DNA of 64,000 bases from an uncultured Gemmatimonadales bacterium (GCA_963798845.1 CAWCUS010000001.1:640001-704000), one strand, 5' to 3'; counted from the stretch's first letter, positions 3,108 through 55,053 are shown. The notes: a model not told the origin generated them from the sequence alone. Numbers and translations are program-made.

Positions 3108-3119
3108 TTCCTTTCCGCG

Positions 3120-7948: not shown

Positions 7949-8160
7949 CGATCCATCCACTTCCTGAGGGCCGCGATCCACTTCGGAGGCCGCGGGTTCT
8001 CGTATCCGCACGCCGGGCACCGCATCAGCCCGCACGCCTGCTTGATCGGGCACGCCTGGCACGTGGCCTGGCTCGGATCTTCCACGAACTCGTGGCCGCA
8101 GAAGCCGCACTTCACCACGACCGGCTCGTGCTCCTTCACGCCCGACGCCGGCGCTACCAT
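7945..8160 (-). CDS. Small Cys-rich (7 Cys) metal-binding protein in the feo operon
   Basis: CGFC...CQACPIKQACGLMRCPACGY; overlaps both the feoB stop and the feoA start. Confidence 0.75.
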   Translation of the reverse strand: MVAPASGVKEHEPVVVKCGFCGHEFVEDPSQATCQACPIKQACGLMRCPACGYENPRPPKWIAALRKWMDR

Positions 8161-10244: not shown

Positions 10245-10269
10245 CCGCACCCCGTGGCCGCACCGCTCA

Positions 10270-12050: not shown

Positions 12051-12222
12051 GTGAGTCTCCTGTTGGGGTCGGTCGGAGGTCTTATCGTGCGACGGAACAT
12101 CGCCGCGGTGCAATCGGGGAAGCCTCGCATCGCGGGAGGGGAAAACTCCGACCGATCGACGCGGGCCGGCGCGCCGCTGGACGCCGGGGGGCTGACGCCC
12201 GGCGCGTGCCCGAACGCCGCGC

Positions 12223-27488: not shown

Positions 27489-27515
27489 ATGCGTGGCGTA
27501 CTCGTCCCGCCGTAG
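27489..27515 (+). other. Candidate leader peptide (uORF) MRGVLVPP*
   Basis: AAGGAGGT SD at 27477-27484, then ATG CGT GGC GTA CTC GTC CCG CCG TAG within the long susC leader. Confidence 0.5.
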
Positions 27516-27600
27516 CCGGTGTGCATCGTCACCAGACACGGATGTCCCCTGCCCGGCCCCTAGGCAGGTCCGGTACATCATCCCCCGATTGGAGGCGTTT

Positions 27601-30600: not shown

Positions 30601-30648
30601 CTGCCGTCAGCGCGGAGCGGGTTCGTCAAGCTCACCTTCCGGTTCTGA
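27601..30648 (+). CDS. susC: SusC/RagA family TonB-dependent transporter
   Basis: PLIFIDGVR, IEVIKGPAAAALYGADASAGVIQIITK, NPDLKPE, terminal F; ATG 27601 has a GGAGG SD. Confidence 0.93.
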   Translation: MIRRFGSVVLLLAALFLPAGLAAQGAVITGTVHNQSLEPVRGAVVSVQGMRLSTVSNEQGFYRLQLPEGARGQITLGVEIIGYRPATVEVTVTGGTMRQDISLVEQAIALNEIVVTGTAGTQSRRAQAAVVSTVDAAQVTEVAPVSSITQLLQSRVPGMDVQVSGGNLGSTQVIRMRGQASLTLSNEPLIFIDGVRADQRNDALYYAVGGQQTSRLNDLRPEDIADIEVIKGPAAAALYGADASAGVIQIITKQGQQNSTFTQTLSAEYQALDWGYWTPPDNWAACTSSAVANADNPLCYGNAVGTLVHDNPLLRTDAIQQGYRQSLNWSGTGGGSNYGYYVSLGGDKGEGAFVNNKQNNVSARGNFNFQPTPKLRIEMGMGLVRAETQLPRNDNDIYGWLGGAMLGSPTSLGTTRDGWYAPNRQNAAIAAYENINTNMRTTPRLQVNYSPFQWMTNRLTMGGDLSRMEAHYFYPKNDNGWYSGVYNTGQIAQARQNYDRYTVDYLGNIANALTSTVSSDLSLGTQILYTRYDRTSATGIGLTTNAANAIDQAAQTTGGQTFNEEAQVGFFGQWQVGFSERLYLQMAGRLDQHSAFGVNADWFFSPKIGASWVVSDEPFWQGHMPAMISTLRVRAAYGTTGRSPTQGALATYTASPFAFVDRTVGSGVQAEDLGNPDLKPERGTEIEAGFEAGLFDERLGLELTYFNKVGTDVILRRPLPPSAGFTQNQLVNIGEVLNSGFEISANARMLTASNLSWDVRVGMNTLHSEIKDLGGVEPYWTGWAQQNKEGYEAHAFFTRQVEHFVLDSSDPQASICGTDADGQFAQCAIVTSEETYKGHYMPTFEGNLSSTLTFLRNFRVYALLDWKNNFMIYNNTDQFRERQFGQGERWVRRNDPTFNQSDEERLRRFGPFYYMDENGAYQPLSAGNVDDAYVEPGDFTRLREVSLHYSIPDQIAALAHVSGATLSVGGRNLALWTKYSGPDPEVSLYLTSDERSDFLTLPSARSGFVKLTFRF

Positions 30649-30657
30649 GGAGGAGCC

Positions 30658-32004
30658 ATGAACACGACGATCCGTAGCGGTTTCGCCGTCGCGCTCCTCG
30701 CCGCCGCCAGTCTGGCGGCCACGGCGTGCGACAACTTCCTGGATGTGAAGACGCCGTACACGATTGCGGCGAACAGCGTCGATCCGGTCAACGACGCGGT
30801 GGCGTTCTCCAACTCCTCCTGGCAGAACTACGTGGAGGCGCTGGGCGATTTCGCGGTCTACGAGGCGTGGTTCACCAACTCGCTGCGCGTCGGGGACACG
30901 TTCCCCACGCGGAACGAGTTCGGCCGACGGTTCCTCGACGACCGGACCAACGGCACGCTCAACACAGAGCTGTGGACCCCCATCTCCAGGGCGGTGGCAT
31001 CGGCCGAGGACGGCCTCGTGCTGCTCGCGGAGCTGGATGACAGCGACATCAACCGGACCCGCCTGTATCTGACAACGGGCTTCGCGTCGCTGACCATGGC
31101 CGAGTCGTTCTGCACGGGCGTGATCCGCGAGGGGCCGGACGCGCCATCGCCGGAGCTGACGAGGGCGCAGATGCTGGAGCACGCCATCGAGCGGTTCCAG
31201 CAGACCATCTCCTCCGGCACGGCCAACGGCACGGCCAACGGCGTCGCAATGGCCAATGCGGCGCGCGTGGGCCTGGCCCGGGCGCACCTGTTCCACGGTG
31301 ACCTGGCGTCGGTGGCGGGCAATGTGAGCGGGCTGCCCGCCGGCTTCGAGTTCAATGCCGTGTACGTGGATGACGCGGGCAACCGCGGCCGTCTGGGCAA
31401 CACGGTGTTCGCGTTCTCCGGCCGCACCGCCAACCGCGAGAGCGGGGTGGTGGGACCGGAGTGGCGGGCGCTCGGTCAGGGAGTGGACGTTTCCCCCACG
31501 CAGCCGTTCGCCGGCGAGGTCGACGGCGATGCGCGCGTGAGCTGGCGTTTCGAGGGTCGCACGGCGCAGGACGGCGTGCACGCCTTCGTGTTCCAGACCA
31601 CGCATGACGGCTGGGATGCCCCGCTCGTGGTGGCCAGCGAGCTCGAGGCGAAGTACCTCGTGCAGCAGGCCAGTGGCACGGACGCGACCCGGATCGATTT
31701 CATCAACGAGCGCCGGACGGCCAATGGCCTCGCCGCGCTTTCGGCCGGTGACTTCGCCGGTCCGGACGCCATCCTGGAGGAGCTGCTCTTCCAGAAGAGC
31801 CTCGACTTCTGGCTCACGGCCCGCCGCATGGCGGACTGGCGCTGGTACACGGGTGATGGCGCCACGGCGCGCAGCACGCACTTCCGCTACGTCCTCGAGC
31901 CCACCGACGAGTACTACAAGCCGGAAGTGGGCGGGATGGGCAACCAGGTGTGCTGGCCGCTGCCCTACAACGAGTACTCGCGGAACACGGACATCAACCG
32001 GTAG
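30658..32004 (+). CDS. susD: SusD-like outer membrane lipoprotein
   Basis: Lipobox ATAC-D; directly follows susC; ARVGLARAHL, DFWLTARRMADWR, CWPLP.NE. Confidence 0.8.
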   Translation: MNTTIRSGFAVALLAAASLAATACDNFLDVKTPYTIAANSVDPVNDAVAFSNSSWQNYVEALGDFAVYEAWFTNSLRVGDTFPTRNEFGRRFLDDRTNGTLNTELWTPISRAVASAEDGLVLLAELDDSDINRTRLYLTTGFASLTMAESFCTGVIREGPDAPSPELTRAQMLEHAIERFQQTISSGTANGTANGVAMANAARVGLARAHLFHGDLASVAGNVSGLPAGFEFNAVYVDDAGNRGRLGNTVFAFSGRTANRESGVVGPEWRALGQGVDVSPTQPFAGEVDGDARVSWRFEGRTAQDGVHAFVFQTTHDGWDAPLVVASELEAKYLVQQASGTDATRIDFINERRTANGLAALSAGDFAGPDAILEELLFQKSLDFWLTARRMADWRWYTGDGATARSTHFRYVLEPTDEYYKPEVGGMGNQVCWPLPYNEYSRNTDINR

Positions 32005-39032: not shown

Positions 39033-39404
39033 ATGCACAAACTATGCAGCGTTCGCGCCGGCACGCTCGTCGCCCTCCTCGCCGCCGTCGCCCTGAGCGC
39101 CTGCGGCATGTTCGGCGGCAGCAATCAGCCCGAGCCCGCCTTCGCCACCGTCACGATCAACAACGACAGTCCCACGACCGTCACCGCCTATGCCGTCCGC
39201 TCCAGCGGCGTGCGGTATCGCCTCGGCACCGTGCCGGGCCTGACGGAAAAGGACTTCGACCTGCGCTCCGACATGGTCGGCCCCACGGGCGAGATGCAGC
39301 TGGTTGTGGACGTTCTCGGAACTTCCCGCATCTACTCGTCCGATCAGGTCTTCATCGAGCAGGGCGACAGCGTCGAGTTCACGGTCAGCCACATGGTGCG
39401 GTAG
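39033..39404 (+). CDS. Hypothetical lipoprotein
   Basis: Lipobox LSAC-G; YRLGTV motif; ATG 39033 with GGGAG upstream. Confidence 0.7.
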   Translation: MHKLCSVRAGTLVALLAAVALSACGMFGGSNQPEPAFATVTINNDSPTTVTAYAVRSSGVRYRLGTVPGLTEKDFDLRSDMVGPTGEMQLVVDVLGTSRIYSSDQVFIEQGDSVEFTVSHMVR

Positions 39405-39765
39405 AGCCGGCCTGCCTGTCCGGCTTCCCGGCCTGCCGCTTCCATCGCTTTATTACCCCCCGTAACATATCTTCAGCGAACCGGGGGCATCCGTCTCCCG
39501 GCTCGGCCGCGGGACGCGGCAGGAGAGGCATCGTGGCTACGCAGGGAGGCCGTTTCACGCGGTCGCTTCCTGGCAAGCGGTCGCCGTGCGGCGTTGCACA
39601 CCACGAGCCGGGGCATGCCCCGACCTACGGGGCGCCCCAGTTCCCTGCCCTATCCCACAGACGCGGCCGACGCGCGTTCCCAGTCCTTCGAGACCGACCT
39701 GATCCGTCTCCGGCTCGCAACCGGGGAACGCGCGCGTACCCATTCCATCCCGGGGAGAGATCGTA

Positions 39766-40383
39766 ATGCCGACGCAGACAAAGGAGCGGGATTCCACGCT
39801 GATGAAGATCCCACAGGACCTCATCGAGCGGGGCCGCGGACTCGCGGGCATGGGGCACGACGTATGGCTTGCCGGCCTCGGCGCCTTCGCGGCGGTCGAG
39901 GAGGAGGGAAGCGCGCTGTACGACAGACTGGTGAAGCGGGGTCGGACCGTGGAGAAGAGCGGGCGCAAGCGCGTCGAGGAGATGCGCGAGGAGATGGAGG
40001 ACCGGCAGCAGAAGGTGACGCACGGGCTCGAGGAGAGGGTGTACGACCCGATCATGAACGCGCTCCGCTCGTTCGGTGTGCCGACCCGTCGCGAGATCCG
40101 GGAGCTGACGGGGAAGGTGGACGCGTTGACCCGTCAGGTGCAGGTGCTGGTCAGCCAGATGCCGGGCGCCGCGCCGGGAGAGTACGAAACGTACTACGTC
40201 ATGGCGCGCGAGGACACGTGGATCGTGGGGCGGGAGGGCGCCGACGAGCCGCTGTTCGTCGAGCCGACCAAGGAGCTGGCGCTGGAGCGGGCCAGGCAGG
40301 TGGTGCACAGCCAGGCGCCGAGCCGCCTGCACGTGTACCGCCGTGACGGCAGCATCCAGGACACGTTCACGTACGAAGAGTGA
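39766..40383 (+). CDS. Phasin (PhaI/PhaF-type granule-associated) domain fused to a DUF2188-like domain
   Basis: VWLAGLGAF....EEG...YD.LVKRG and GVPTRREI..L..KVDAL; C-terminal W.V.REG....TKE.A...AR...L.V..RDG.IQ...Y. Confidence 0.85.
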   Translation: MPTQTKERDSTLMKIPQDLIERGRGLAGMGHDVWLAGLGAFAAVEEEGSALYDRLVKRGRTVEKSGRKRVEEMREEMEDRQQKVTHGLEERVYDPIMNALRSFGVPTRREIRELTGKVDALTRQVQVLVSQMPGAAPGEYETYYVMAREDTWIVGREGADEPLFVEPTKELALERARQVVHSQAPSRLHVYRRDGSIQDTFTYEE

Positions 40384-40386
40384 CCC

Positions 40387-41634
40387 GTGGCCGCCAGCCG
40401 CGTCGGCTTGGCGTGCGCGGGCGGCGTCGTCGAGGGGGCGTTCTACGAGATCGGGGTCCTGTGCGCCCTCGATGAGGCCGTCGAGGGGCTCGATCTGACC
40501 GCGCTCGACGTCTACGTGGGCGTCAGCGCGGGCGCCATCCTCACGGCGTGCCTGGCCAACGGGATCCCACCCCGGGACGTGGCCCGGGCGATGCTCTCGG
40601 TGGAGGCATCCCCGGACGCCCTCGCTCCCGAGGCGGTGTTCCGCCCGGCGCTGGCCACCTACGCCGCCCGCGCGGCGGGAGTGCCCGTGCGCGTCCTGGG
40701 CGCCATCGCCCGCTACGCTGCGGACCCCCGCGACATCTCGCTCTTCGGCTCGCTCCTGGAGCTGGCCACGGCGCTGCCGGTGGGGCTGTTCGACAACCGG
40801 CCGCTGGAGCAGCACCTCGCACGCGTGTTCTCCGCCGAGGGCCGCACCAACGACTTCCGGGAGCTCCCCGCCACGCTGCGCATCGTGGCGGTCAATCTGG
40901 ACACGGCGGAGCTGGTGGCCTTCGGCGACGACGCCACCGCCCACGTCCCCATCTCCCGGGCTGTCCAGGCCAGCTCCGCGCTCCCGCTGATGTATCTCCC
41001 CGTTGAAATCGACGGGGAGTATTACATCGACGGAGTGGCGAGGCGGACGCTGAACGCGAGCCAGGCGCTCCAGGCGGGCGTGGACCTGCTTCTGTGCGTG
41101 AACCCCATCGTCCCTCTGGACCTGCGCATTCCGGGCGACGACGGCGTGCGCCATCCCAGCCTCGTCCACAGCGGGCTCCCTGCCGTGCTCTCGCAGACGT
41201 TTCGGACCATGATCCATTCGCGGATGGTGACGGGGTTCCGGAACTACGCGTTTCTGTACCCCGACGCCGACGTCGTGCTGCTGGAGCCCGAGGCCGGCGA
41301 CCGGACGATGTTCTTCACGAACATCTTCAGCTTCTCCCACCGCCACGAGGTGATGCACCACGGCTACGCGACGGCGCGCGGCTGGCTGCTGCGCAACGCC
41401 GGCCGTCTGGAGCCCGTGTTCCGCCGCCACGGCATGCGCCTGCGGGAGAGCGTGCTGACGGAGGACCGGCGCCTGGCGGTGGAGCGGCGACCGCTGCCCG
41501 GCGCGCGCGAGCTCGTGGGCCGCGCCAGCGCTGCGCTGGACGAGCTCTCGAGTGCCCTCGATCGGCTCCGCGCGAGGGGGGGCGGCACGAGCCGGAGGGG
41601 CGGTGCGGTCGGCTCCCCGCGGCGGCGCGGGTGA
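40387..41634 (+). CDS. Patatin-like phospholipase/lipase
   Basis: AGGVVEG oxyanion-like region, GVSAG nucleophile motif, ASSALP, YIDGV. Confidence 0.88.
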   Translation: MAASRVGLACAGGVVEGAFYEIGVLCALDEAVEGLDLTALDVYVGVSAGAILTACLANGIPPRDVARAMLSVEASPDALAPEAVFRPALATYAARAAGVPVRVLGAIARYAADPRDISLFGSLLELATALPVGLFDNRPLEQHLARVFSAEGRTNDFRELPATLRIVAVNLDTAELVAFGDDATAHVPISRAVQASSALPLMYLPVEIDGEYYIDGVARRTLNASQALQAGVDLLLCVNPIVPLDLRIPGDDGVRHPSLVHSGLPAVLSQTFRTMIHSRMVTGFRNYAFLYPDADVVLLEPEAGDRTMFFTNIFSFSHRHEVMHHGYATARGWLLRNAGRLEPVFRRHGMRLRESVLTEDRRLAVERRPLPGARELVGRASAALDELSSALDRLRARGGGTSRRGGAVGSPRRRG

Positions 41635-41645
41635 GGAGGCGAGGC

Positions 41646-42842
41646 ATGGCATCGCGCACGCGGATCCTCCTGTTCACCGGCAAGGGCGGTGTGGGAAAGA
41701 CCACGTGCGCGGCGGCCACGGCCGTTCGCGCCGCGGAGCTGGGGCACCGGACGCTGGTGCTTTCGTCGGACCCGGCGCACTCGCTGGCGGACGCGCTGGA
41801 CCTGCCGCTCGGCCCGGAGCCCACGGAAGTGTTCCCGGGTCTGCACGCGCAGGAGCTCGACCTCTACTACTCCATGAACAAGCACTGGGGCAACATCCGG
41901 GAGCTGCTGCTGGTGATGTTCAAGTGGCAGGGCGTCGAGCGGGTGGCGGCCGAGGAGATGGCGGCGCTGCCCGGGATGAGCGAGGGGGCCGCGCTCCTCT
42001 GGATCGACCAGCTGCACGGCTCGGGCGACTATGACCTCATCGTCGTGGACAGCGCGCCGACGGGCGAGACGCTCACCCTCCTCACCCTGCCCCAGGTCAC
42101 GGAGTGGTGGGTGAAGCGGGCGCTCCCATTCCAGCGCTTCGCCGTGAAGACGGCCGGCTTCGCCATGCGAAAGGCGGCGGGGATCCCGCTGGACCGTGCG
42201 TACGCGGAGCTGGAGTCGCTGGTGACCCACCTGGAAGCGGTACGGGACCTCCTGACGGACCCCGACACATCGTCGATCCGGCTGGTGCTCAACCCGGAAC
42301 GGATGGTGATCCAGGAAGGGCGGCGCGCCTTCGCATACCTCCAGCTGTACGGCTACAACATCGACGCCGCGCTGGTGAATCGGATCCTGCCGGAGGAGGG
42401 AGTCGGCGACGCGCTCCAGGGCTACCTGGACGCCCAGCGCGGCTACCTGACCGAGATCCAGGAGGCGTTCGCGCCACTCCCGATCCTGCACGCCCCGCAC
42501 CGCGGCCGGGAGGTGTTCGGGGTGGACATGCTCCGCCGCCTGGGGACGGAGCTCTACGGTGACCGCGATCCGACGTACGTCTTCTACCGCGGCGAGCCGT
42601 ACCGTCTGGTGAGCGAGGACGGCGGCTACCGGCTCGACCTTCGGCTCCCCGAGAGCGCGGCCGGGCAGGTCACGGCCCGGCACGCGGGCGACGAAGTGGT
42701 CCTCCAGCTCGGAAACCAGCGCCGCAACTATTCGCTCCCCCGATTCCTCGCCTACTACACCCTGACCGGCACCCGCTTCGAGCAGGGATGGTTCCGCATC
42801 CGGTTCGAGCCCGTGGCGGGCCGCGCGAAGGAGGCAGAATGA
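41646..42842 (+). CDS. GET3/ArsA family ATPase with a C-terminal HSP20-like domain
   Basis: GKGGVGKTT, SSDPAHSL, DSAPTGET, NPE.M; beta-rich C-terminus LQLGNQRRNYSLP; ATG 41646 with GAGG SD. Confidence 0.9.
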   Translation: MASRTRILLFTGKGGVGKTTCAAATAVRAAELGHRTLVLSSDPAHSLADALDLPLGPEPTEVFPGLHAQELDLYYSMNKHWGNIRELLLVMFKWQGVERVAAEEMAALPGMSEGAALLWIDQLHGSGDYDLIVVDSAPTGETLTLLTLPQVTEWWVKRALPFQRFAVKTAGFAMRKAAGIPLDRAYAELESLVTHLEAVRDLLTDPDTSSIRLVLNPERMVIQEGRRAFAYLQLYGYNIDAALVNRILPEEGVGDALQGYLDAQRGYLTEIQEAFAPLPILHAPHRGREVFGVDMLRRLGTELYGDRDPTYVFYRGEPYRLVSEDGGYRLDLRLPESAAGQVTARHAGDEVVLQLGNQRRNYSLPRFLAYYTLTGTRFEQGWFRIRFEPVAGRAKEAE

Positions 42843-44134
42843 CCGCGCCCACGACCACCGCCCAATCCCCAGGGACGACGCCGTCCGCCGCCGCAGCGCT
42901 GGACTCGCCGACGAGATCCCGTGCGGTGCGCCGTCCGGCCCAGGTCCCGCTGCCCCCGCCGTCGCGGCCCACGCGCATCCCGCGCGAGAACGACGACTAC
43001 GGCCCCAATGCCATCGCCCGGAGGCGTGCCTTCATCGAAGCGTCGAGCGGGGTGAGGCTCGAGCACGTCTCCGCCTGCTCCTTCGACCCGCGGCTGGCGG
43101 CGGGCAACTGCGAACACTTCACCGGCGTGGCCCAGGTGCCGCTCGGGTTCGCCGGACCGCTCCTGGTGCGCGGGGAGCACGCGGACGGCGAGTACCTGAT
43201 CCCGCTCGCCACGTCGGAAGGGACGCTCGTCGCCTCGTACAACCGCGGCATCCATACCCTCAACGCCGCCGGCGGCGTGCGGACCACGATCCTCGACGAC
43301 GGCATGCAGCGCGCGCCTGCGTTCGTCCTGGCCGACGCCCGGGAAGGGCGCGACTTCGCTGCCTGGGTGGCCGACAACATCCCCGGCATCCGCACGGCCG
43401 CGGAAGCCACCTCGCGGGTGGCCAGGCTGCTTCACGTGGAGCCGTTCCTGGCCAGCCGGTTCGTGTTTCTTCGATTCAGCTTCGAGACGGGCGACGCGGC
43501 GGGGCAGAACATGGTCACGCGGGCTACAGCGGCCGCGTGCCAGTGGATCGTCCAGCAGTGCGGCGGGGTGGAGCGCTTCTTCCTGGAATCGAACCTCGCC
43601 TCCGACAAGAAGACGTCGCACGTGAACATGCTGCGTGGACGGGGGAAGCGGGTGACGGCCGAGGCGGTGGTGCCGCGGACGGTGCTGGAGGAGCGGATGC
43701 GGGCGTCGCCCGACACGCTGGTCGCGCACTACCACGCCAGCTCGGTGGGCGCATTCCTGGCCGGTCCCAGCAACAACGGCCTTCACACGGCCAACGCGCT
43801 CGCGGCCATGTTCATCGCGACAGGCCAGGACGCAGCCAGCGTGGGCGAGTGCTCCGCGGGGATCATCCACGTGGAGCTCGCCGGTCCCGACCGCGAGGAC
43901 CTGTATGTGTCCATCACGCTCCCCTCCCTCATCGTGGCCACCCATGGGGGCGGGACGGGGCTGCCCACCCAGCGCGAGTGCCTGGAGGTCATGGGGTGCT
44001 ATGGCCGGGGGAAGGTTCGGATGCTGGCGGAGATCGTGGCCGCCGTGGTGCTGGCGGGCGAGCTGTCGCTGGCCTGCGCGATCGCCTCCAACGAGTGGGT
44101 GGAAGCCCACGAACGCATGGGGAGGAACCGATGA
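42839..44134 (+). CDS. Class I HMG-CoA reductase-like enzyme (divergent)
   Basis: PLATSEGTLVAS, DGMQRAP, TGDAAGQNMV, cis-loop SNLASDKK, GRGK, ATGQD, GGGTGL, LAGELSL, C-terminal His; ATGA overlap with the ATPase gene. Confidence 0.9.
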   Translation: MTAPTTTAQSPGTTPSAAAALDSPTRSRAVRRPAQVPLPPPSRPTRIPRENDDYGPNAIARRRAFIEASSGVRLEHVSACSFDPRLAAGNCEHFTGVAQVPLGFAGPLLVRGEHADGEYLIPLATSEGTLVASYNRGIHTLNAAGGVRTTILDDGMQRAPAFVLADAREGRDFAAWVADNIPGIRTAAEATSRVARLLHVEPFLASRFVFLRFSFETGDAAGQNMVTRATAAACQWIVQQCGGVERFFLESNLASDKKTSHVNMLRGRGKRVTAEAVVPRTVLEERMRASPDTLVAHYHASSVGAFLAGPSNNGLHTANALAAMFIATGQDAASVGECSAGIIHVELAGPDREDLYVSITLPSLIVATHGGGTGLPTQRECLEVMGCYGRGKVRMLAEIVAAVVLAGELSLACAIASNEWVEAHERMGRNR

Positions 44135-45501
44135 CGTGGACCTCGCCGCCGCCGGGCGGCCGCCGGTTCTCCGGCGCGGACAGCTCCTGGTGGCACATGG
44201 AGGAGCCCACCAATCAGATGGCCATCACCGTGGTCCTGACGTTCGATGGCCCGATCGACGAGGACCGTCTCCACGCCGTGCTCCGCGATCGGCTCCTGCG
44301 CCACGACCGCTTCCGGCAAATGGTGGTGGAGTCTCCGCTCGGGTTCGGCCGCCCTCAATGGGTGGAGGACCCGGGGTTCTCCCTGGAGCGGCACCTGAGC
44401 CGGATCCGCCTGCACGACGGCGGCGGGAAGGCGGAGCTCCAGCGGGTCGCAGGGCTGGAGATGAGCCGCCCTCTCCACCCGGACCGCCCCCTGTGGCGCA
44501 TGGTCTACGTCGACGGCTTCGAAGGCGGCTCCGCCCTCGTGATCCGCATCCACCACTGCATCGCCGATGGCCTCGCCCTCGTACGGGTCCTCATGACCCT
44601 CGGCGATCCTACGGACGGTGCGTGCGGCGAGCGGGCGAGCCCGGCCGTCCTCGACCCCGCCACGTACGCCTCGCCTTCGGTCACGATGACGGCGGGAGAG
44701 GCGGCGGAGCGCGACTTCGTCCGAGCCCTGGCGCTGGGCACCCGCGCTGCGGGGTCGCTCGGCCGCCTCGTGGGGCTGCGCCCGGACCCGCGGACCGCGC
44801 TGCGCGGGCCGCTGTGCCGGGAGAAGCGCGCGGCGTGGTCGCGTCCAATGTCGCTGCGGCGGCTCCGGGCCGCCTCTCGCGCCGCCGGCGCCACGCTCAA
44901 CGACGTGGTGGTCGCCGCCGTGGCGGGCGGACTGGGGCGCTTCCTGGCGGAGAAGGGAGAGCAGCTCACGCGTGAAGTCCGCGCGGTGGTCCCCGTGAAC
45001 CTGCGCCGCAACGGCGACGAAGAAGCGCTGGGCAACCGCTTCGGGCTGATCTTCGCTCCGTTGCCGCTGGGCATCCCGAATCCTCTCGAGCGTCTCGGCG
45101 CGGTGCACGCTACCCTGAGCCGGCTCAAGCGCTCGCCCCAGCCGATGGTGATCTACGGCCTGCTGGAGCTCCTCGGCCGTACGCCGCGCGCCGCCCTCGA
45201 CCTGGCCGTCTGGCTCCTCGGCAGCAAGGGCTCGCTGGTTCTCACGAACGTGCCGGGTCCCCGTCGCAGGATTCGCATCTGCGACCGTGAGCTCCTGTCT
45301 GTCGTCGGCTGGGTTCCCCAGTCCGGCCGATTGGGGCTCGGTGTCAGCATCCTCAGCTACGCGGACGAGATCCGGCTGGGCGTCGCCACGGATGCCGCGA
45401 TCCTCCCGTGCCCGGACCACCTGGTGGGCGCCATCCAGGATGCTGCCGACCAGATCCTCGACACCGTTCGCCCGCCCCGGGTGGCGGAGGTGGTGGCATG
45501 A
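44131..45501 (+). CDS. Wax ester synthase/diacylglycerol acyltransferase (WS/DGAT)
   Basis: HHCIADG catalytic motif, ATLNDV, PVNLR, LGNRFG, TNVPGP, ILSY; ATGA overlap. Confidence 0.93.
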   Translation: MTWTSPPPGGRRFSGADSSWWHMEEPTNQMAITVVLTFDGPIDEDRLHAVLRDRLLRHDRFRQMVVESPLGFGRPQWVEDPGFSLERHLSRIRLHDGGGKAELQRVAGLEMSRPLHPDRPLWRMVYVDGFEGGSALVIRIHHCIADGLALVRVLMTLGDPTDGACGERASPAVLDPATYASPSVTMTAGEAAERDFVRALALGTRAAGSLGRLVGLRPDPRTALRGPLCREKRAAWSRPMSLRRLRAASRAAGATLNDVVVAAVAGGLGRFLAEKGEQLTREVRAVVPVNLRRNGDEEALGNRFGLIFAPLPLGIPNPLERLGAVHATLSRLKRSPQPMVIYGLLELLGRTPRAALDLAVWLLGSKGSLVLTNVPGPRRRIRICDRELLSVVGWVPQSGRLGLGVSILSYADEIRLGVATDAAILPCPDHLVGAIQDAADQILDTVRPPRVAEVVA

Positions 45502-47402
45502 GCACCGCAGCTCGGGATCCGGACGCCCGTCCGCTCGCCCTGGTCCGCGGCGAAACGGGCAGCGACGCGCCCCCGGCACCCCCCGCGCCTCCGGCGGAGG
45601 AAGCGGCGCTGGAGGGGGCGCCAGCGGAGTCGGCGCTGGCCGGGCTCGTCCCGCGCACCGCGCCGCACCTCCACGCCACCTATCGGAGCGTCATCGGTCG
45701 CTTCTTCGGCGTGCACCGGCACGTCCTGGGTCTGCTGGTGGGGGCGAGGGTCGCGAGGGCGGACGGGCTGCCGCCGGACCAGCGCCGCCGCTTCCGGTCG
45801 CTTCCACTGCGCGCGTCCGCCGCGGTGCTGCGCCCGCTCCTGCTCCGAGAGCTGCGCCACGCTCCCTTCCCGGAGCAGCTGCGCCGTCGCCTGGAGCTGC
45901 TCGGTCCCACGTACGTGAAGCTCGGCCAGATCATGGCCATCCGTGAGGACCTGCTCCCCGCCCCCGTCTGCCGGGCGCTCCAGGTGCTCTTCGACCACGT
46001 GCCGCCGGTGCCGTTCGAGACCGTGCGCCTGACCCTCGAGCGGGAGCTGGGCCGCCCGATACACCAGGCGTTCCGCTGGGTAGACGAGGAACCGCTCGGC
46101 TCGGCGTCCATCGCGCAGGTGCACCAGGCCGAGACCGTCACCGGCGACGCCGTGGTCGTGAAGGTCATGAAGCCCGGAATCCGCCGCTCGATCGAGACCG
46201 ACCTGCGCCTGCTCCGCTGGCTCGGCGCGCTTCTCCAGCACGTGCTGCCGCGCTACCAGCCGCGCCGGATCATCGACGAGTTCGGCACCTACACGCTTCG
46301 AGAGCTCGACTTCACCGCCGAGGCGGACAACGCCGAGACGTTCGCCGCCAACTTCCACGACACCCCGGAAGTGTGCTTCCCGCGCATCTACCGCGAGCTC
46401 ACCACGCCCTCGCTCCTCACCATGGAGCTGCTGCGGGGGTTCAAGCCATCCGATCCCCGGGCACGCGCCCTCTCCGCCGACGACCGCGAGCGCCTCACCG
46501 ACCTCGGCGCCGGCGCCATCATCCGCATGCTGTACCGCGACGGCTTCTTCCACGCCGATCTCCATCCGGCCAACCTCCTCATCCTCGGCCGTGAGACGGT
46601 TCGCGCCGCGGGGGCTGGAGTCGGCGGGGGGGGCGCGTGGGGCGCCGCGGGCAGCGCGGCGGCAGCCTCGAAGGCCGCCCATGCAGCCGACCACAGCGAT
46701 CGCGACACGCTCCGTGTGGGCTTCGTGGACCTCGGGATGGTGGGACGCTTCGAGGACCGGATGCGCCGTCGCATGCTCTACTACTACCACGCGCTGGTCA
46801 CCCGCGACGTGGAAGGGGCGGCCAAGTTCCTCGGCCAGATGGCCGAGCTCGGCCGTGGCGCCGACCCCGTCGCCTTCCGGCGCGCCGTCGTGGACCTCTC
46901 GCGTCGCTTCGTCACCCGCGCCGAGCGCGGCGAGTTCAGCATCGCCCAGCTCATCCTCGAGTCCATCGGCCTCGGCGCCCGCTACCGCGTCTACTTCCCC
47001 GTGGAGATGACGCTCATGGTCAAGGCGCTGGTCACGTTCGAGGGCGTCGGTCGCATGCTCGACCCCCACCTCGACGTCACGGCGATCTCACGCCGTCACG
47101 TCAGCCGCATCCTCCAGCGACAGTTCACGCTCGAGCGGGTCAGCCGCGAGGTGCTGCGCGAAGCCCCCGAGCTGATCGAGCTCGCCGTCGGTCTCCCCCA
47201 GCTGCTGGTCAGCGGCAGCCGCTTCCTCGAGGAGAGCTTCGACCGACGCCCTCCCCGCGACCCCGCCACGGGCCTCCGCTCCGCGGTGCTCGCCGGCGCA
47301 TGCCTCATCGGCGGCGTTCTCACCCTCACCGCGGCCGGACCGCCCGCGCTCTGGATCCCCCTCTTCGGCCTCGCCGCCGTCATGGCGGTGTGGCGGGGCT
47401 AG
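45498..47402 (+). CDS. ABC1/UbiB (AarF) family atypical kinase
   Basis: LGPTYVKLGQ, GSASIAQVH, VVKV, ELDF..EA, FFHADLHPANL, DLGMVG, two C-terminal TM helices; ATGA overlap. Confidence 0.93.
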   Translation: MSTAARDPDARPLALVRGETGSDAPPAPPAPPAEEAALEGAPAESALAGLVPRTAPHLHATYRSVIGRFFGVHRHVLGLLVGARVARADGLPPDQRRRFRSLPLRASAAVLRPLLLRELRHAPFPEQLRRRLELLGPTYVKLGQIMAIREDLLPAPVCRALQVLFDHVPPVPFETVRLTLERELGRPIHQAFRWVDEEPLGSASIAQVHQAETVTGDAVVVKVMKPGIRRSIETDLRLLRWLGALLQHVLPRYQPRRIIDEFGTYTLRELDFTAEADNAETFAANFHDTPEVCFPRIYRELTTPSLLTMELLRGFKPSDPRARALSADDRERLTDLGAGAIIRMLYRDGFFHADLHPANLLILGRETVRAAGAGVGGGGAWGAAGSAAAASKAAHAADHSDRDTLRVGFVDLGMVGRFEDRMRRRMLYYYHALVTRDVEGAAKFLGQMAELGRGADPVAFRRAVVDLSRRFVTRAERGEFSIAQLILESIGLGARYRVYFPVEMTLMVKALVTFEGVGRMLDPHLDVTAISRRHVSRILQRQFTLERVSREVLREAPELIELAVGLPQLLVSGSRFLEESFDRRPPRDPATGLRSAVLAGACLIGGVLTLTAAGPPALWIPLFGLAAVMAVWRG

Positions 47403-49276: not shown

Positions 49277-49924
49277 ATGAGCATGAAGGATGGCACCGGC
49301 CGACGGAGGTACCCCGGGGTCCCGGGACGGCGCCCCCGCGCGCTCCCCATCGCCCACGCGCTGGCGTCACAGGCGGTCGGCACCGAGCGGCTGAGGGTCC
49401 GCGTCCCGTGGAGCGTTCCCGAGCTCGTCCGGTCGACGCTGGCCCTCGCCTGGCACGGTGGCGCCCCGCGCCCCGCCGCCATCGTCAGTCTCCTCTTGGT
49501 GGTATGCGCTGCGGCGGTCGCAGCGATGGTCCAGTGGGCGCGCGGAGGCTGGGACGCGGTGGATGCGCTGGCACTCGCCGTCATCGTGGTGCCGCCGCTC
49601 CTGGTGGTCTTCCTCGGCATGCCCGCGTCCGCGTTCTGGCACACGTGGCCCGTCCTGCGCCACGCCTCGGTCGCCGGCCACTGGGAAGTTCGCCTCGGCG
49701 ACGGCGGATTCGCCCTCCTCGCCGCCGCCAGCGCCGCCGGGACACCCTGGCAGCGAGTGGAGCGCGTGGTGGAGACGGATGGGTTCTTCCTCTTCTTCGT
49801 GGATCGCGCCGCGCTGGCGCTCCCCCGTCCCGCGCTCACGCCGGGGGATACGCGCGTCCTCCGGGCGTTGCTGTGGGCGAAGCTCGGCGAACGGTTCATC
49901 CTTCGACACGGCCAGGCGGCCTGA
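49277..49924 (+). CDS. YcxB-like membrane protein
   Basis: Two TM segments then PW..V..VVET..FF.F......LP..A; start uncertain. Confidence 0.5.
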   Translation: MSMKDGTGRRRYPGVPGRRPRALPIAHALASQAVGTERLRVRVPWSVPELVRSTLALAWHGGAPRPAAIVSLLLVVCAAAVAAMVQWARGGWDAVDALALAVIVVPPLLVVFLGMPASAFWHTWPVLRHASVAGHWEVRLGDGGFALLAAASAAGTPWQRVERVVETDGFFLFFVDRAALALPRPALTPGDTRVLRALLWAKLGERFILRHGQAA

Positions 49925-50073
49925 GGATCCTGGACGACACGCCGGCGGTGGATCCGGCCCGGCACGTTCCTTCCTCCCGGGGCCCGACCGTTCGGCAGGG
50001 CACCCCGGGCAGCGCCGGCAGGCAGCACGAGCGCGCCTTAGATTCGGCAGCGGACCCGATTCACGGAGCGGTG

Positions 50074-52263
50074 ATGTTCATGCACGCAACGTCTCCCCTT
50101 TTTCCCTGGCTGCTCGCGGCCACGGCGTTCGCCGCGGCGTCTGGAGGGTGCTCGGACGCCTCCGTGACGGCCCCGCCCGACAATGGGGGCGAGCCGCTTC
50201 CCTCGCAGGATGGGCATCGCTTCACCTACTCGCCGCCACCGCAGGCGCCTCCGATCGCCGACATCAGCGTCCGGGGGAGCTTCAACGGGTGGGAAGAGAA
50301 GCCGATGGCGAAGGGCACGAGTGGGGTCTGGCAGGTCGTCGTCGACCTCCCGGACGGGACGCATCAGTACAAGTTCTACGTGAACGGTGCGTGGGTGAAC
50401 GACATGTGCTACGACCCCACGTGGGGCGATCCGGACAACGGGTATGTCGTGGACCCGGCAGCGACCGGATGCGTGTCGGACGGAAACAGCGGCGCGAACG
50501 CGGTGCTGGCGCTGGGCGCGCTGCAGCTGGACTTCCGCCACCAGCCCGGCGGGGCCGCGTACGTGTCGGAGGCCGGGGGTCGCCTGTCGGTGCGGTTCAG
50601 GGCGCGCGCCGGGGTGGTGACGACGGCCGCCGTGGCCGCCGGGGACTCGACCTTCCCGATGCACCTGCAGCTGGTGGACGGGATCACGGAGGTGTGGCGA
50701 GCGTCGTTGCCGGACGCGACGACCGGCTACGCGATTGACGTCGCCACGGTGGACAGCACGGCGCACTTCGGGCCGTACCAGGTGCCGGCGAGCCTGTTCC
50801 GCTCGATTCGGTGGGTGGAGGACGCCGTCGGCTACCAGATCTTTCCGGAGCGCTTCTGGAACGGAGACCGTGGCAACGACCACTGGACAATGGACACGGA
50901 CGAGATCCACTTCCGGGACCCGTCGCTCCCGCCGTGGGACACGGTGTTCACCGACGACTGGAGCGGTCCGGCCACCGGATGGCTCCCCTCGCACCAGTAC
51001 TTCGGCGGGGACCTCCAGGGCATCATCGACCGTCTGGGACACCTGGATTCCCTCGGGGTGAGCGCGGTCTACCTCAACCCGGTCTTCCTGGCCGGCTCCG
51101 CACACGGGTACGACACGTACGACTACCTGAAGGTGGCGCCGAACCTCGGGGACAGCACGCTGCTCCGATCGTTCCTCGACGCCGCGCACGCGCGGGGAAT
51201 CCGCGTGATCTGGGATTTCGTTCCGAACCACGTGGGTATCGGCCACTGGGCGTTCCAGGATGCCCTGGCGAAGGGAGAGGCGAGCGAGTACTGGGACTGG
51301 TTCACCTTCAAGGTGCCCGCGGACTCCGTCCAGGCCGGGGACGACGATGACTACGAGAGCTGGGGAGGTAGCGGTTCGCTTCCGGAGCTCCGGACGGACA
51401 ACCCGGAGGTGATGGACCACCTCCTGGACGTCACCCGCCACTGGACGACCTTCGGCTTTGACGGCATCCGCGTGGACGTCCCGTTCGACATCGGCAACCG
51501 CAGCACGTTCTTCCCGGCGTTCCGCGCCGCGGCGAAGGCGATCGACCCCGAGGCGTATCTCGTGGGCGAGATCTGGAACCAGGTGCCAAGCTGGCTGCGG
51601 GGGGGCGAGTTCGACGCACTCATGAACTACGCCCTCGGCCAGCGCATGGTGGAAGCGTTCGCCGACGGCGACATCAGCGGTGTAGCGGCGGCCCGACGGA
51701 TGGCGTCCATGTACACCGAGTACCCGGAGGCGGCCGTGGCCATGATGTTCAACGTCATCGCGTCCCACGATACCGACCGGCTGCTCACCATGCTCGGCGG
51801 TGGCCACTACGGGGCGACCCCCGGCCCCGAACCGCTCGCCCGACAGCGGCTCGCCTCCGCGCTGCTCTATGCGCTCCCCGGCATGCCCGTCACGTTTCAG
51901 GGCGACGAGTGCGCCCAGCTCGGCGCCAAGTCGAGGAGCGACATGGAGCGTTACCCGGTGCAATGGAGCCAGTGCGACCGGGAGATGGTGGGGCACTACG
52001 TCCGGCTGGCCGGGCTGAAGCACGGGCTGGCGGCCCTCGGGTCTCCCGTGGTTCGGGCGGGTGAGGCTTCGCCGACCCTGCTCTCGTTCCACCGGGGCGA
52101 GCCGGGCCCGGGTGAGGTGCTGGCCGTGTTCAACAACGGCTCCGGTGAGGCAACGCTCGCGCTCCCGCCCGGCATCTGGAGCGACGCGGAGACCGGCGAG
52201 GCGGTGAATGGGAGCGTGGCCATGGAGGGACTCGGCTGGCGCTACCTGGTCCGGGGCGACTGA
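50074..52263 (+). CDS. GH13 alpha-amylase/neopullulanase-like lipoprotein with an N-terminal glycogen-binding (CBM48/AMPK-like) module
   Basis: Signal ending SGGC-S; VRGSFNGW...YKFYVNG; YQIFPERF, GGDLQGI, HGYD, DFVPNH, DGIRVD, GEIW, SHD. Confidence 0.9.
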   Translation: MFMHATSPLFPWLLAATAFAAASGGCSDASVTAPPDNGGEPLPSQDGHRFTYSPPPQAPPIADISVRGSFNGWEEKPMAKGTSGVWQVVVDLPDGTHQYKFYVNGAWVNDMCYDPTWGDPDNGYVVDPAATGCVSDGNSGANAVLALGALQLDFRHQPGGAAYVSEAGGRLSVRFRARAGVVTTAAVAAGDSTFPMHLQLVDGITEVWRASLPDATTGYAIDVATVDSTAHFGPYQVPASLFRSIRWVEDAVGYQIFPERFWNGDRGNDHWTMDTDEIHFRDPSLPPWDTVFTDDWSGPATGWLPSHQYFGGDLQGIIDRLGHLDSLGVSAVYLNPVFLAGSAHGYDTYDYLKVAPNLGDSTLLRSFLDAAHARGIRVIWDFVPNHVGIGHWAFQDALAKGEASEYWDWFTFKVPADSVQAGDDDDYESWGGSGSLPELRTDNPEVMDHLLDVTRHWTTFGFDGIRVDVPFDIGNRSTFFPAFRAAAKAIDPEAYLVGEIWNQVPSWLRGGEFDALMNYALGQRMVEAFADGDISGVAAARRMASMYTEYPEAAVAMMFNVIASHDTDRLLTMLGGGHYGATPGPEPLARQRLASALLYALPGMPVTFQGDECAQLGAKSRSDMERYPVQWSQCDREMVGHYVRLAGLKHGLAALGSPVVRAGEASPTLLSFHRGEPGPGEVLAVFNNGSGEATLALPPGIWSDAETGEAVNGSVAMEGLGWRYLVRGD

Positions 52264-52907: not shown

Positions 52908-53525
52908 GTGGACGCGCTCACCGTACGCGGATTGACCCGGAGCTTCGGCCCGCTCCGGGTGCTGGATGCCATCGATTTCACGGTCCCGCGCGGCCGGGTG
53001 GCCGTGCTGCTGGGGCCGAACGGCGCGGGCAAGACGACGCTGCTGCGCTGCGTGGTGGGCGCGGAGCGCCCGGACGCGGGGGAGGTGGTGCTCGAGGGGC
53101 ACCGCATGGACGAAACCGACCCGTGGGTCCGGGCGGCGGTCGCGGCAGTCCTGGATGACATGGATTTCTTCCCGGACCTCTCGGTCCTCGAGCACCTCCA
53201 GCTGCTCGCGCTGGCACACGGCGGGGACCCGGCAAACGTCCCGGAGGTGGTGACGGAGCTGGGGCTCGATCCCGCCCGCGACCAGCTACCGGCGACGCTT
53301 TCGAGTGGCCAGCGACGCCGGCTGGCGCTGGCTTCCTGCTTCGTCCGTCCGCGTCGTCTGCTCGTGCTGGACGAGCCCGAGCAGCGGCTGGACGTGCGAG
53401 GCCGCGCGTGGCTCGCCCGGCGGCTGAAGCGTGAGAAGGCGGACGGCACCACCGTGCTCATGGCGTCCCACGATTCCGAGCTGGTCGACGCCGTGGCCGA
53501 CCTCCGGATCGAGCTGGGCGCGTGA
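52908..53525 (+). CDS. ABC transporter ATP-binding protein
   Basis: GPNGAGKT, LSSGQ, LVLDEP, ASHD. Confidence 0.93.
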   Translation: MDALTVRGLTRSFGPLRVLDAIDFTVPRGRVAVLLGPNGAGKTTLLRCVVGAERPDAGEVVLEGHRMDETDPWVRAAVAAVLDDMDFFPDLSVLEHLQLLALAHGGDPANVPEVVTELGLDPARDQLPATLSSGQRRRLALASCFVRPRRLLVLDEPEQRLDVRGRAWLARRLKREKADGTTVLMASHDSELVDAVADLRIELGA

Positions 53526-53613
53526 GCCGACGCGCCACACCCGCCACCACCCCGTGCTGCGGCGACGCCCACCGGGTCGGGCGGGCGCACGCGGAAGGCG
53601 GGGGCGGGGCCAC

Positions 53614-55053
53614 GTGAGTGCGACGCTCGCTGCCGCGCCCCACCGCATCCCGCGCCCGTCGACGTGGCGGGGCGCGCTGAAGCGCGCGCGCCGCAGACAC
53701 CACGCGCGCTCCACGGGCGATGTCCTCACCGACCTGTACATGCTGCTCTGGGTGCTGGTGGTATACGGCGGCGCACTGGTGTCCACGGTACGGGAGCACC
53801 TGCGCACGCCGCCGGGAGTGGCGGGCCTGGCGGCGGAGCGGGTTTGGATCGCCGCCGCCGTCATCCTGGCGGGGTCGGGGCTGCTGTGGCAGGGGGTCCG
53901 GGCCGTGGGCCCCCTCGTGGCGTCGCCCGCGGAGCAGTCGTGGGGCGTCTCCTCGCCCATGGACCGGCGACGCTGGCTCCTCCCCCGCTTCGTCGCCCTC
54001 CTCCTCGCCGGACTCGTGGGCGGGGCGGCGTCCGCCGGCATGGTGGTGATCCTCGGCCTCCGGGGGCATGGCTTCGGCGCGGCGCTGGCGGCGGGCGGGG
54101 TGTGGGGCCTTGGCGCCATGGCCGCCGCGGTGGCAGCCCAGGGCGCGCGCACGCGGCGCGGGCGGATCACCCTCCTTCCGGCCCGCATCGCCGGGCCAGC
54201 GCTCACGGCCGCCGGGACGCTCGCCGCCGCGGCGGTCGTGGCCGCCCACTATGGCGGCCGAGGCCTCCCCCTCCCCGACGCCCCGGTTGCGAAGTGGCTG
54301 GTGGCCGGCGGCGGCGCGCTGGCGCTCGGGGCCTGCGTCCTCGCGACGCGCGCGCTGCGCCAGGTGGACCGGGCAGCGCTGGGTGCCGGAGCGGAGATCG
54401 CTGCGGCCGCGCTGAGCGCGACCGTGTGGACGGATCCCTCGCTCCTGTCCCGCGTCCTGGAAGTGCGCCGCTGGCGACGCGTCGGCCGGGTTCGGAGCCG
54501 ACACTTCTTCGGCGCGGTGCCGGGCGTGTCGCCCCGGGCGTGGTCGCTCCTGCAGGGAGAGGTGCGGCGGGTGGCGCGTCGCCCGATGTCCCTGGTGGTC
54601 TGGGCTGCGCTCGGTCTGGCGCAGTACGCCATAGCCGTCGTGGCGCCCTCGGTGGCCGGCGTGGCCCACGTCATCGGCGCGTACATGGCGGCAGGGCGCC
54701 TCACGGGCGGGCTGCGCGCGATCGCCGGATCGGCGGGGCTGAGGCGCGCGGTGGGCGGCGGGGAGCTGGAGCTGCGCCTCATCCACGTCGTGGTCCCCGC
54801 CGTCGGGACCGCGCTCTGGTGGGTCCTGACGGCGCCGGCCGGGGGGCCACCGCTGGGCTCGGGCGAGGTGTTCCTGGTGCTGGGCGTGGTGGCGGCGGCG
54901 TACCGCTCCGCCACCCGCCCACCCATGACCTACGGCGGCTCCGCCATGGACAGTCCGGTCGGCCTATTCCCTACGGACCTCCTGCTCCAGCTGGCGCGCG
55001 GCCCGGACCTGCTGGGCGTGGTGCTGATCGTTCGCCTGATCCTGGGCCACTGA
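53614..55053 (+). CDS. DUF6297-like multi-pass membrane protein (probable ABC permease)
   Basis: Many TM helices, GP...SPA...W..SSP.DRR..L.P motif; follows the ABC ATPase. Confidence 0.6.
   Translation: MSATLAAAPHRIPRPSTWRGALKRARRRHHARSTGDVLTDLYMLLWVLVVYGGALVSTVREHLRTPPGVAGLAAERVWIAAAVILAGSGLLWQGVRAVGPLVASPAEQSWGVSSPMDRRRWLLPRFVALLLAGLVGGAASAGMVVILGLRGHGFGAALAAGGVWGLGAMAAAVAAQGARTRRGRITLLPARIAGPALTAAGTLAAAAVVAAHYGGRGLPLPDAPVAKWLVAGGGALALGACVLATRALRQVDRAALGAGAEIAAAALSATVWTDPSLLSRVLEVRRWRRVGRVRSRHFFGAVPGVSPRAWSLLQGEVRRVARRPMSLVVWAALGLAQYAIAVVAPSVAGVAHVIGAYMAAGRLTGGLRAIAGSAGLRRAVGGGELELRLIHVVVPAVGTALWWVLTAPAGGPPLGSGEVFLVLGVVAAAYRSATRPPMTYGGSAMDSPVGLFPTDLLLQLARGPDLLGVVLIVRLILGH

Follow-up and report, generated by a model that had tools for sequence, protein, structure and literature searches.

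A Gemmatimonadales operon that joins an FcrA-type reductase to putative lipid-body accessory genes: a candidate wax-ester body locus

The operon and its proposed function

The window analysed here, a 64,000-nt stretch of DNA from an uncultured Gemmatimonadales bacterium (GCA_963798845.1, CAWCUS010000001.1:640001-704000), carries at positions 39766-47402 of its + strand six genes that code for a phasin-DUF2188 protein (gene 1), a patatin-like hydrolase (gene 2), a Get3/ArsA-fold ATPase with an HSP20 domain (gene 3), a fatty acyl-CoA reductase of the FcrA type (gene 4), a wax ester synthase/diacylglycerol acyltransferase (WS/DGAT; gene 5), and an ABC1/UbiB-family kinase-like protein (gene 6). 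The operon is probably a compact, lineage-specific version of a widespread wax-ester (neutral-lipid) body neighbourhood. Genes 1 and 2 are spaced by 3 nt and genes 2 and 3 by 11 nt, the pairs 3/4, 4/5, and 5/6 each share an ATGA start/stop overlap, and the six genes are presumably co-transcribed.

The activities, the product, and its localisation in the following scheme are predicted from the gene order, domains, motifs, FcrA residues, and linkage that were observed. The FcrA-type reductase would convert long-chain acyl-CoA to fatty alcohol with NADPH, and the WS/DGAT would join this alcohol to a second acyl-CoA to form a wax ester. In this scheme, the phasin-DUF2188 protein would form the coat of the hydrophobic ester body, whose surface a PhaR-like repressor may sense in the relatives, and the patatin-like hydrolase would mobilise the ester from the stores. 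The ABC1 protein may sit on the body or the membrane through its C-terminal hydrophobic hairpin and either act on alcohol/ester metabolism as a kinase-like ATPase or regulate it, and the Get3/ArsA-fold ATPase with its alpha-crystallin domain may serve as a chaperone of hydrophobic cargo, be it a protein tail or a lipid.

Bacterial bodies of wax ester and triacylglycerol (TAG) are familiar, and their coat, regulatory, and biogenesis proteins are ill-defined beyond a few actinobacteria. FcrA, WS/DGAT, and wax bodies are already known; the accessory gene set linked to fcrA appears to be new, and here six candidates lie in one transcription-sized unit, beside both predicted lipid-making enzymes, in an operon small enough for transfer to a laboratory host and gene-by-gene testing. 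A sequence-only reading of this DNA had proposed a module for a non-polyhydroxyalkanoate (non-PHA) neutral-lipid inclusion and had not recognised the combination as a described system. The co-directional layout with its two gaps and three overlaps was confirmed from the sequence and all six domain assignments by Pfam; of the module itself, the co-conservation of the genes stands and the missing reductase does not. Literature searches returned no description of the combination, and the main text of PMC11948995 likewise gives no accessory set beside fcrA. The operon is less surprising than that reading held, the odd 'HMGR' being explained, and it is a compact, testable candidate for the missing surface and biogenesis proteins of bacterial wax-ester bodies.

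A bolder version, which we consider possible and rather doubtful, holds that FcrA and WS/DGAT with phasin/PhaR, ABC1, Get3-fold, and patatin partners make up a horizontally mobile organelle module for wax-ester bodies, present in at least five bacterial phyla, in which a PHA-type coat and regulator would have been co-opted for wax droplets, an ABC1 kinase would be the partner, and the droplet would receive hydrophobic cargo from the Get3d-like ATPase. If this were true, ABC1 as the partner of the reductase would imply phosphorylation or gating of fatty alcohols, and the module would be a bacterial counterpart of the plastoglobule machinery.

Identity of the reductase

Gene 4 (42839-44134, +; Pfam HMG-CoA_red, 6e-124) encodes a protein with the full-length class-I HMG-CoA reductase (HMGR) fold and 40-45% identity to solved HMGRs. 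It scores 344 bits against TIGR00533, the NCBIfam HMGR equivalog, under the cut-off of 441.8, and the nine further clade members tested range from 332 to 361 bits, all likewise under it. The signature positions were checked in 101 clade sequences, namely the window protein, 20 short forms, and 80 long forms, with human HMGR numbering taken as the 2q1l chain index plus 434. The catalytic E127, K257, D331, and H424 (human Glu559, Lys691, Asp767, and His866) are invariant (101/101), as are R158, D256, K258, and N319 (101/101). Three positions are replaced in every sequence: that of human S684 holds Glu in 101/101 (E250 in the window), that of K735 holds V, A, I, or T in 101/101 (A300), with no Lys or Arg in columns 298 and 300 and Arg in column 299 of at least six sequences, and that of L862 holds Trp in 101/101 (W420). 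The solved class-I HMGRs (human, Arabidopsis, and M. thermolithotrophicus) read S-G-N and K-N-L at the signature sites, and the three positions hold Ser, Lys, and Leu in seven full canonical representatives as well. The canonical S-G-N, K-N-L, and DAMGMNM motifs are absent from gene 4, which reads ESN, no Lys, and DAAGQNM.

FcrA is an HMGR-derived fatty acyl-CoA reductase (Grossi et al., ISME J 2025; PMC11948995), defined by the retention of the HMGR catalytic residues and by three replacements that are likely specificity determinants; the replaced lysine is printed there as Lys795, and the present 2q1l mapping gives Lys735. The FcrA of the Chloroflexi member 'Ca. Promineifilum breve' converts C14-C18 acyl-CoA to alcohol with NADPH, does not act on HMG-CoA, and is not inhibited by simvastatin (PMC11948995); a Promineifilaceae locus (L056 of the survey described below) lies inside the gene 4 clade and carries the FcrA signature. 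Because the three signature replacements are present and the catalytic residues are kept, gene 4 is assigned to the FcrA type: its sequence matches the FcrA family, and its identity as a mevalonate enzyme is not supported. The earlier statement that the cluster has no fatty acyl-CoA reductase is therefore wrong, and the label 'HMGR-like' holds for the fold and the Pfam HMG-CoA_red match and fails for a mevalonate HMGR role, given the signature and the TIGR00533 score. The FcrA identity removes the isoprenoid flavour of the cluster and leaves wax esters as the likely product. Genes annotated as 'HMG-CoA reductase' in Gemmatimonadota, Acidobacteriota, Hymenobacter, and other groups are probably mislabelled.

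The window protein has no Lad domain (Pfam HMG-CoA_red_N, PF25653), and its N-terminus consists of 58 residues rich in Pro and Ala. Lad is present in 18/18 FcrA proteins of at least ~510 aa from annotated loci, a count outside which fall the 435-aa FcrA of locus L050 and a partial second copy in L001, and it is described as specific to certain FcrA only (PMC11948995). The window protein and 20 metagenome relatives form one clade of 21 short forms (SH-aLRT, the Shimodaira-Hasegawa-like approximate likelihood ratio test, 99), so that the FcrA work of 2025 is extended by a Lad-less lineage; the long branch of the window protein in a first tree (1.34-1.42) was a sampling artefact and fell to 0.21 after the 20 short forms were added. 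The Lad domain (e.g., L043:8635-9009) is modelled as a beta-sandwich with a predicted local distance difference test (pLDDT) score of 91.5, and the best PDB matches of the model are small subunits of C-glycoside deglycosidases (DgpB/DfgB/CarB; template modelling score 0.64-0.72), which offer no functional lead past the alkyl-carrier proposal of PMC11948995.

The wax-ester route

Gene 5 (44131-45501, +; Pfam WS_DGAT_cat, 4.7e-35, and WS_DGAT_C, 1.6e-35) scores 363 bits against TIGR02946, over the cut-off of 309.95, and bears the active-site motif HHCIADG (HHxxxDG) at residue 141. Together, FcrA and the overlapping WS/DGAT would suffice to lead from acyl-CoA to wax ester, both activities being predicted. 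Adjacency of fcrA and WS/DGAT has been reported in two Halovenus genomes and one Holophagaceae contig (PMC11948995).

Conservation of the neighbourhood

The genomic context of fcrA was surveyed by searching species-representative genomes with aligned FcrA relatives, which yielded 592 confirmed relatives, and the best 80 of these, with 57-64% identity, were retained as loci (L numbers). Partners were detected by tblastn with the proteins of the window and of annotated loci, and by Pfam on 19 loci; many of the 80 loci have short flanks, and the partner counts lack phylogenetic independence. Partner families number at least one in 36/80 loci and at least three in 13/80. An ABC1 gene occurs at 22 loci, at 19 of which it comes directly after fcrA, with 44-52% identity to the window ABC1; WS/DGAT occurs at 19, a PhaR-like gene (PHB_acc_N) at 18, phasin and patatin at 13 each, a pair of ArsA-fold ATPases (BagB/BagA-like) at 6 (a tally of 7 includes the Get3-HSP20 match of L036), a PlsC-like acyltransferase at 5 (L001, L007, L014, L027, and L044), and Get3-HSP20 directly upstream of fcrA at 2, both from Salinibacteraceae. 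Loci with at least one partner amount to 6/6 in Gemmatimonadota, 23/32 in Acidobacteriota, 1/2 in Calditrichota, 2/3 in Rhodothermota, and 1/1 in Verrucomicrobiota, in addition to two KSB1-type loci. Homologues of gene 4 have the same families nearby in other phyla, which suggests that the adjacency is more than chance; the co-occurrence by which the sequence-only reading was to be checked is thus found, since the set, or most of it, stands together in other genomes and phyla. This context is conserved, yet unmentioned in the main text of PMC11948995.

One order recurs, in which fcrA is followed by ABC1 and WS/DGAT and the opposite strand carries patatin <- phasin <- PhaR-like <- ArsA <- ArsA; it is found at L035, L043, and L051 of Gemmatimonadota and at L050 and L052 of Holophagaceae, and at L044 of Acidobacteriota with WS/DGAT replaced by a PlsC-like gene. 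The order differs at L027, at the KSB1 loci, and in the window, where the linkage is kept. In the FcrA tree, the Gemmatimonadota loci L043 and L051 fall inside the Acidobacteriota (SH-aLRT 99) and share their synteny, which suggests that the block is mobile as one unit. At L035, L043, L044, L050, L051, and L052 (e.g., L043:15497-17499), the ArsA pair replaces the single Get3-HSP20; a Get3 with an alpha-crystallin-type C-terminus adjoins fcrA in Gemmatimonadota and Salinibacteraceae (41646-42842 in the window; L036:1933-3168; L072:3-1208). At the KSB1-type loci (L001:8560-17942; L007:8401-14825), fcrA is followed by polyketide synthase-like genes with ketosynthase and acyltransferase domains (KS-AT), and at L007 also by an acyl-CoA dehydrogenase; L001 holds the second, partial fcrA copy at 12026-13048.

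The closest relatives of the window type, defined as a short-form FcrA without N-domain together with phasin-DUF2188 and Get3-HSP20, are metagenome proteins, whose linkage was judged from equal longest-contig sizes in match tables. FcrA and Get3-HSP20 occur on equal-sized contigs in 18 cases against ~1.2 expected by chance, FcrA and phasin-DUF2188 in 6 against ~0.3, and phasin-DUF2188 and Get3-HSP20 in 10 against ~0.45, and all three families come together at four contig sizes (4672, 7200, 42145, and 44670 nt), the smallest of which has room for little beyond phasin, patatin, Get3, and fcrA. Long or intermediate forms account for 11/18 of the Get3-linked FcrAs, and the pairing of Get3-HSP20 with fcrA therefore extends past the short-form clade.

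Accessory proteins

Gene 1 (39766-40383, +; Pfam Phasin, 1.9e-23, and DUF2188, 3.4e-11) scores 75.2 bits against the NCBIfam model PHA_granule_1 (TIGR01837), under the cut-off of 94.7. The phasin-DUF2188 fusion is a conserved family of ~205 aa, with 39 further clusters at 35-77% identity, and the ESM Atlas holds a 74-member cluster with both domains, of which Rhodothermota is the commonest source. The AlphaFold2 model of gene 1 has long helices at residues 17-131 and a small alpha/beta domain at 141-203 (mean pLDDT 72.8), and a Foldseek search of the PDB with this model gave no match at E <= 0.001. Gene 2 (40387-41634, +; GTG start) matches Pfam Patatin with 93.3 bits (2.8e-26), over the threshold of 27.7, and is 41-52% identical to the patatins of related clusters; it has the nucleophile motif GVSAG at residue 45 and DGV at residue 215, whose Asp we take to be that of the catalytic dyad.

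Gene 3 (41646-42842, +; Pfam ArsA_ATPase, 2.8e-79, and ArsA_HSP20, 7.8e-15) scores 232 bits against TIGR00345, over the cut-off of 135, and 131.5 bits against the NosAFP/Get3d equivalog, versus a cut-off of 325. Its best PDB match is the archaeal Get3 3zq6 (1.4e-50), and its full length, including the C-terminal HSP20/alpha-crystallin-like domain, aligns to Nostoc All4481/Get3d (3igf); its closest named relatives are 'Gemmatimonadota bacterium' proteins with 79-83% identity. The P-loop GKGGVGKT is an intact deviant Walker A, switch II reads PTGET, a CxxC motif is lacking, and Glu141, invariant in 28/28 homologues, stands where switch II usually has His. Get3d is reported to enclose a hydrophobic chamber, to co-purify with lipid-sized molecules, and to bind tail anchors (PMC10248533).

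Gene 6 (45498-47402, +; Pfam ABC1, 3.8e-61) scores 314.3 bits against TIGR01982 (UbiB), under the cut-off of 487.55, and belongs to the ABC1 Pfam family without being UbiB by NCBIfam. Its KLGQ, HADLHPxN, and DxG motifs are invariant in 10/10 aligned homologues. A C-terminal hydrophobic stretch at residues 592-631, made of two short helices and a Pro-containing turn, is conserved in 10/10 aligned cluster-linked homologues, and the Trp that follows the turn is nearly invariant among them. A complex prediction of the Get3-HSP20 dimer with the ABC1 tail (residues 570-634) scored 0.00 against a mark of 0.32, which speaks neither for nor against binding. An analogy is offered by cyanobacterial lipid droplets, in which a DGAT-like enzyme accompanies three ABC1 kinases (PMC12223511).

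Reductase-kinase fusions

A search of 1.84 billion representative proteins returned 3954 relatives of the reductase, and Pfam was run on 84 of the best 150 (P0290-P0439), including all of at least ~545 aa. In 39/84 representatives, the FcrA-like domain is fused C-terminally to a kinase of the APH, EcKL, or choline-kinase type; 10/84 have AMP-binding and/or carrier domains in front of it, two of them also with a kinase, and further fusions among the 84 join it to ACBP (one), DUF3419 (two), and PilZ, receiver, or AfsA domains (11). In the kinase-fused domains, position 250 is Glu, Asp, or Ala and position 420 is Phe, and one protein with the canonical signature is fused to a GHMP kinase domain. 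These fusions back a functional link between reductase and kinase, of which the fcrA-ABC1 pair may be the two-gene form. The recurrent coupling suggests an alcohol-phosphorylating step and may indicate an unrecognised step of fatty-alcohol metabolism; kinases are unmentioned in the main text of PMC11948995.

Alternative explanations

Several points weigh against the wax-ester body reading. For this operon and organism, the evidence is sequence alone, and phaC may be present elsewhere in the genome, of which 64 kb were examined. Gene 1 falls under the PHA-granule phasin cut-off, though Pfam Phasin (PF05597) is present, and known phasins belong to PHA granules, not to wax bodies. The characterised FcrA has a Lad domain that the window FcrA lacks. 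No partner was detected at 44/80 FcrA loci, many of them short-flanked: the loci of Bacteroidota (0/10), Myxococcota (0/3), and Pseudomonadota (0/3) have none, and those of Chloroflexota have one (1/15), a patatin 6 kb away. The partner counts come from non-independent lineages among the best 80 of 592 relatives, none above 64% identity, and equal-sized contigs indicate linkage indirectly, so that the six-gene synteny of the window type in metagenomes is a presumption. Moreover, fcrA is often found without WS/DGAT and may supply ether-lipid synthesis (PMC11948995, section 20), and three of the five related loci with a PlsC-like acyltransferase have no WS/DGAT in the flanks examined.

The last of these points belong to an alternative that we hold to be unlikely, in which the FcrA alcohol feeds membrane ether or other alcohol-derived lipids and the other genes remodel membrane lipid. 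That role has been proposed for some FcrA, with PlsC-like neighbours noted (PMC11948995, section 20), the loci without WS/DGAT (L014, L027, and L044) agree with it, and the fusions of FcrA-like domains to small-molecule-type kinases suggest a phosphorylated alcohol intermediate. However, the window WS/DGAT, whose gene overlaps fcrA, carries the HHxxxDG motif and scores over its curated cut-off, the cluster has no AGPS or PlsC gene by Pfam, and the phasin and PhaR-like partners indicate a hydrophobic inclusion. About equally improbable is a role in lipid stress or homeostasis with no discrete inclusion, in which the operon would detoxify excess acyl-CoA and fatty acids by turning them into esters at the membrane, the phasin-like protein would be a membrane-stress protein, and the Get3-like one a holdase chaperone. 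The resemblance of the ArsA pairs in related clusters to M. tuberculosis BagB and BagA would suit this, with NCBIfam scores of 234 and 89 bits that are both under the cut-offs, and the ABC1 tail resembles a membrane anchor; the joint presence of synthesis, coat, PhaR-type regulator, and lipase is instead the pattern of a storage-granule locus.

Less credit still is due to a genuine PHA granule system, with its synthase encoded outside the window, to which the phasin, and in relatives the PhaR-like protein, would belong, the cluster being a general carbon-storage regulon. The Pfam Phasin and PHB_acc_N matches point that way, and the view is limited to 64 kb of the genome, but PhaC is found neither among the scanned window open reading frames (ORFs) nor in the flanks annotated at 19 related loci, the NCBIfam cut-offs are reached neither by the phasin nor by the PhaR-like proteins of related loci, and the linkage to FcrA and WS/DGAT is tight. 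As the sequence-only reading had stated of the cluster, phaC, phaA, and phaB are lacking: Pfam finds no PhaC, PhaA/B, classical fatty acyl-CoA reductase, or mevalonate-pathway gene among the selected window ORFs.

That gene 4 is a genuine HMGR, and the operon a plastoglobule-like module for isoprenoid lipids, is very improbable. The full-length Pfam HMG-CoA_red match and the conserved catalytic residues would allow it, and ABC1 proteins are tied to prenyl-lipid metabolism (PMC12223511). All three FcrA replacements are present, however, the score is under the NCBIfam HMGR cut-off, and the characterised FcrA does not reduce HMG-CoA (PMC11948995). Related lineages, furthermore, rely on the methylerythritol phosphate (MEP) pathway: it is encoded by 31/31 cultured Acidobacteria genomes (PMC5462960), and Table S1 of PMC13001223 has as MEP-only all 12/12 Hymenobacter species, Gemmatimonas, Gemmatirosa, Salinibacter ruber, and at least 10 of about 30 Acidobacteriota rows. 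No mevalonate-pathway gene was found in the 19 annotated flanks of related loci. The notion of an orphan HMGR in MEP-pathway lineages, with its isoprenoid reading, was dropped given the signature residues and PMC11948995. Fortuitous adjacency of six unrelated functions is scarcely tenable in view of the start/stop overlaps and of a linkage that recurs in rearranged orders across several phyla.

Comparison with known systems

The wax-ester body operon resembles the droplets of Rhodococcus and Mycobacterium, which are TAG/wax bodies made by WS/DGAT with dedicated surface proteins, whereas the known surface proteins there, TadA and MLDS, are of other families; literature searches gave no operon of this composition. 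With PHA granule (carbonosome) loci it shares a phasin-family coat next to synthesis and hydrolysis genes and, in relatives, a PHB_acc_N regulator. It differs from them in that no PHA synthase is seen and the synthesis genes are FcrA and WS/DGAT, in that the hydrolase is patatin-like and not of the PhaZ type, in the fusion of the window phasin to DUF2188, and in that no PhaR was found in the window.

The pathway of FcrA and WS/DGAT described in PMC11948995 has the same HMGR-derived reductase with Glu, small-residue, and Trp replacements, the same catalytic tetrad, and an adjacent WS/DGAT; in the window, by contrast, the enzyme is devoid of Lad and fcrA stands in a six-gene operon with accessory partners, and the words phasin, kinase, patatin, ArsA, and Gemmatimonad have zero occurrences in the main text of that paper. 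Plastoglobules and cyanoglobules (PMC12223511) also combine ABC1-family kinases with a neutral-lipid acyltransferase, in droplets there and as genes alone here. Their genes are scattered, their coat is fibrillin, and their contents are prenyl lipids, whereas here one operon would provide a phasin-like coat and a predicted wax-ester content. Get3d of plants and cyanobacteria (PMC10248533) is likewise a Get3 ATPase with a C-terminal alpha-crystallin-type domain and no CxxC, but the ATPase domain of the window protein is nearest to archaeal Get3, with a conserved P-loop, switch I, and Glu-type switch II; Get3d is tied to phototrophs (PMC10248533), and the protein of the window kind is found in Gemmatimonadota and Rhodothermota beside fcrA.

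Operon boundaries and surroundings

The called frames of the six genes have a G+C content at third codon positions (GC3) of 0.89-0.93, in a window of ~71% G+C. No terminator-like site was found on the + strand within the cluster. The terminator scan did no better than shuffles, the sigma-70 promoter scan found none, and Rfam has no match in the window. A candidate operator is tentatively placed at 39671..39749, just 5' of the phasin start codon: a 19-nt direct repeat, found by repeat search, lies at 39671 and 39731, 60 nt apart, together with an imperfect GC-rich palindrome at ~39723-39741, so that repeat and palindrome stand 25-95 nt upstream of that start. The window ORFs scanned include no PhaR gene.

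On its upstream side, the cluster is flanked by a divergent PBP1A gene and by a small lipoprotein ORF at ~39033-39404 (+), which lies between PBP1A and the operon and has GC3 ~0.9, a lipoprotein-like signal (…LSAC…), and no Pfam match; with this ORF present, the upstream intergenic region is ~360 nt and not 727 nt. Downstream, a tRNA_bind gene follows 85 nt after the cluster and has a tblastn match in 0/80 related loci.

Farther away, a generic short-chain dehydrogenase/reductase is encoded at 12223-13020, 27 kb from the cluster, and two SusC-like TonB receptors with CarboxypepD_reg lie within 1746-6338 and 27493-32004, the first paired with a SusD-like gene and the second followed by a 448-aa ORF with no Pfam match. 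Taken with the G+C content and the named relatives of gene 3, these SusC/SusD-like genes and TonB receptors make membership of Gemmatimonadota most likely for the source organism. FeoA/FeoB are found at 7616-10250 and a pair of ABC ATPase and DUF6297 genes at 52908-55053. A defence-system reading was rejected, the PADLOC matches being weak (<=30 bits). At 49408-52263 (+), 2 kb downstream of the operon, an alpha-amylase-family protein carries a glycogen-binding AMPK1_CBM module and may represent a second carbon-storage function nearby.

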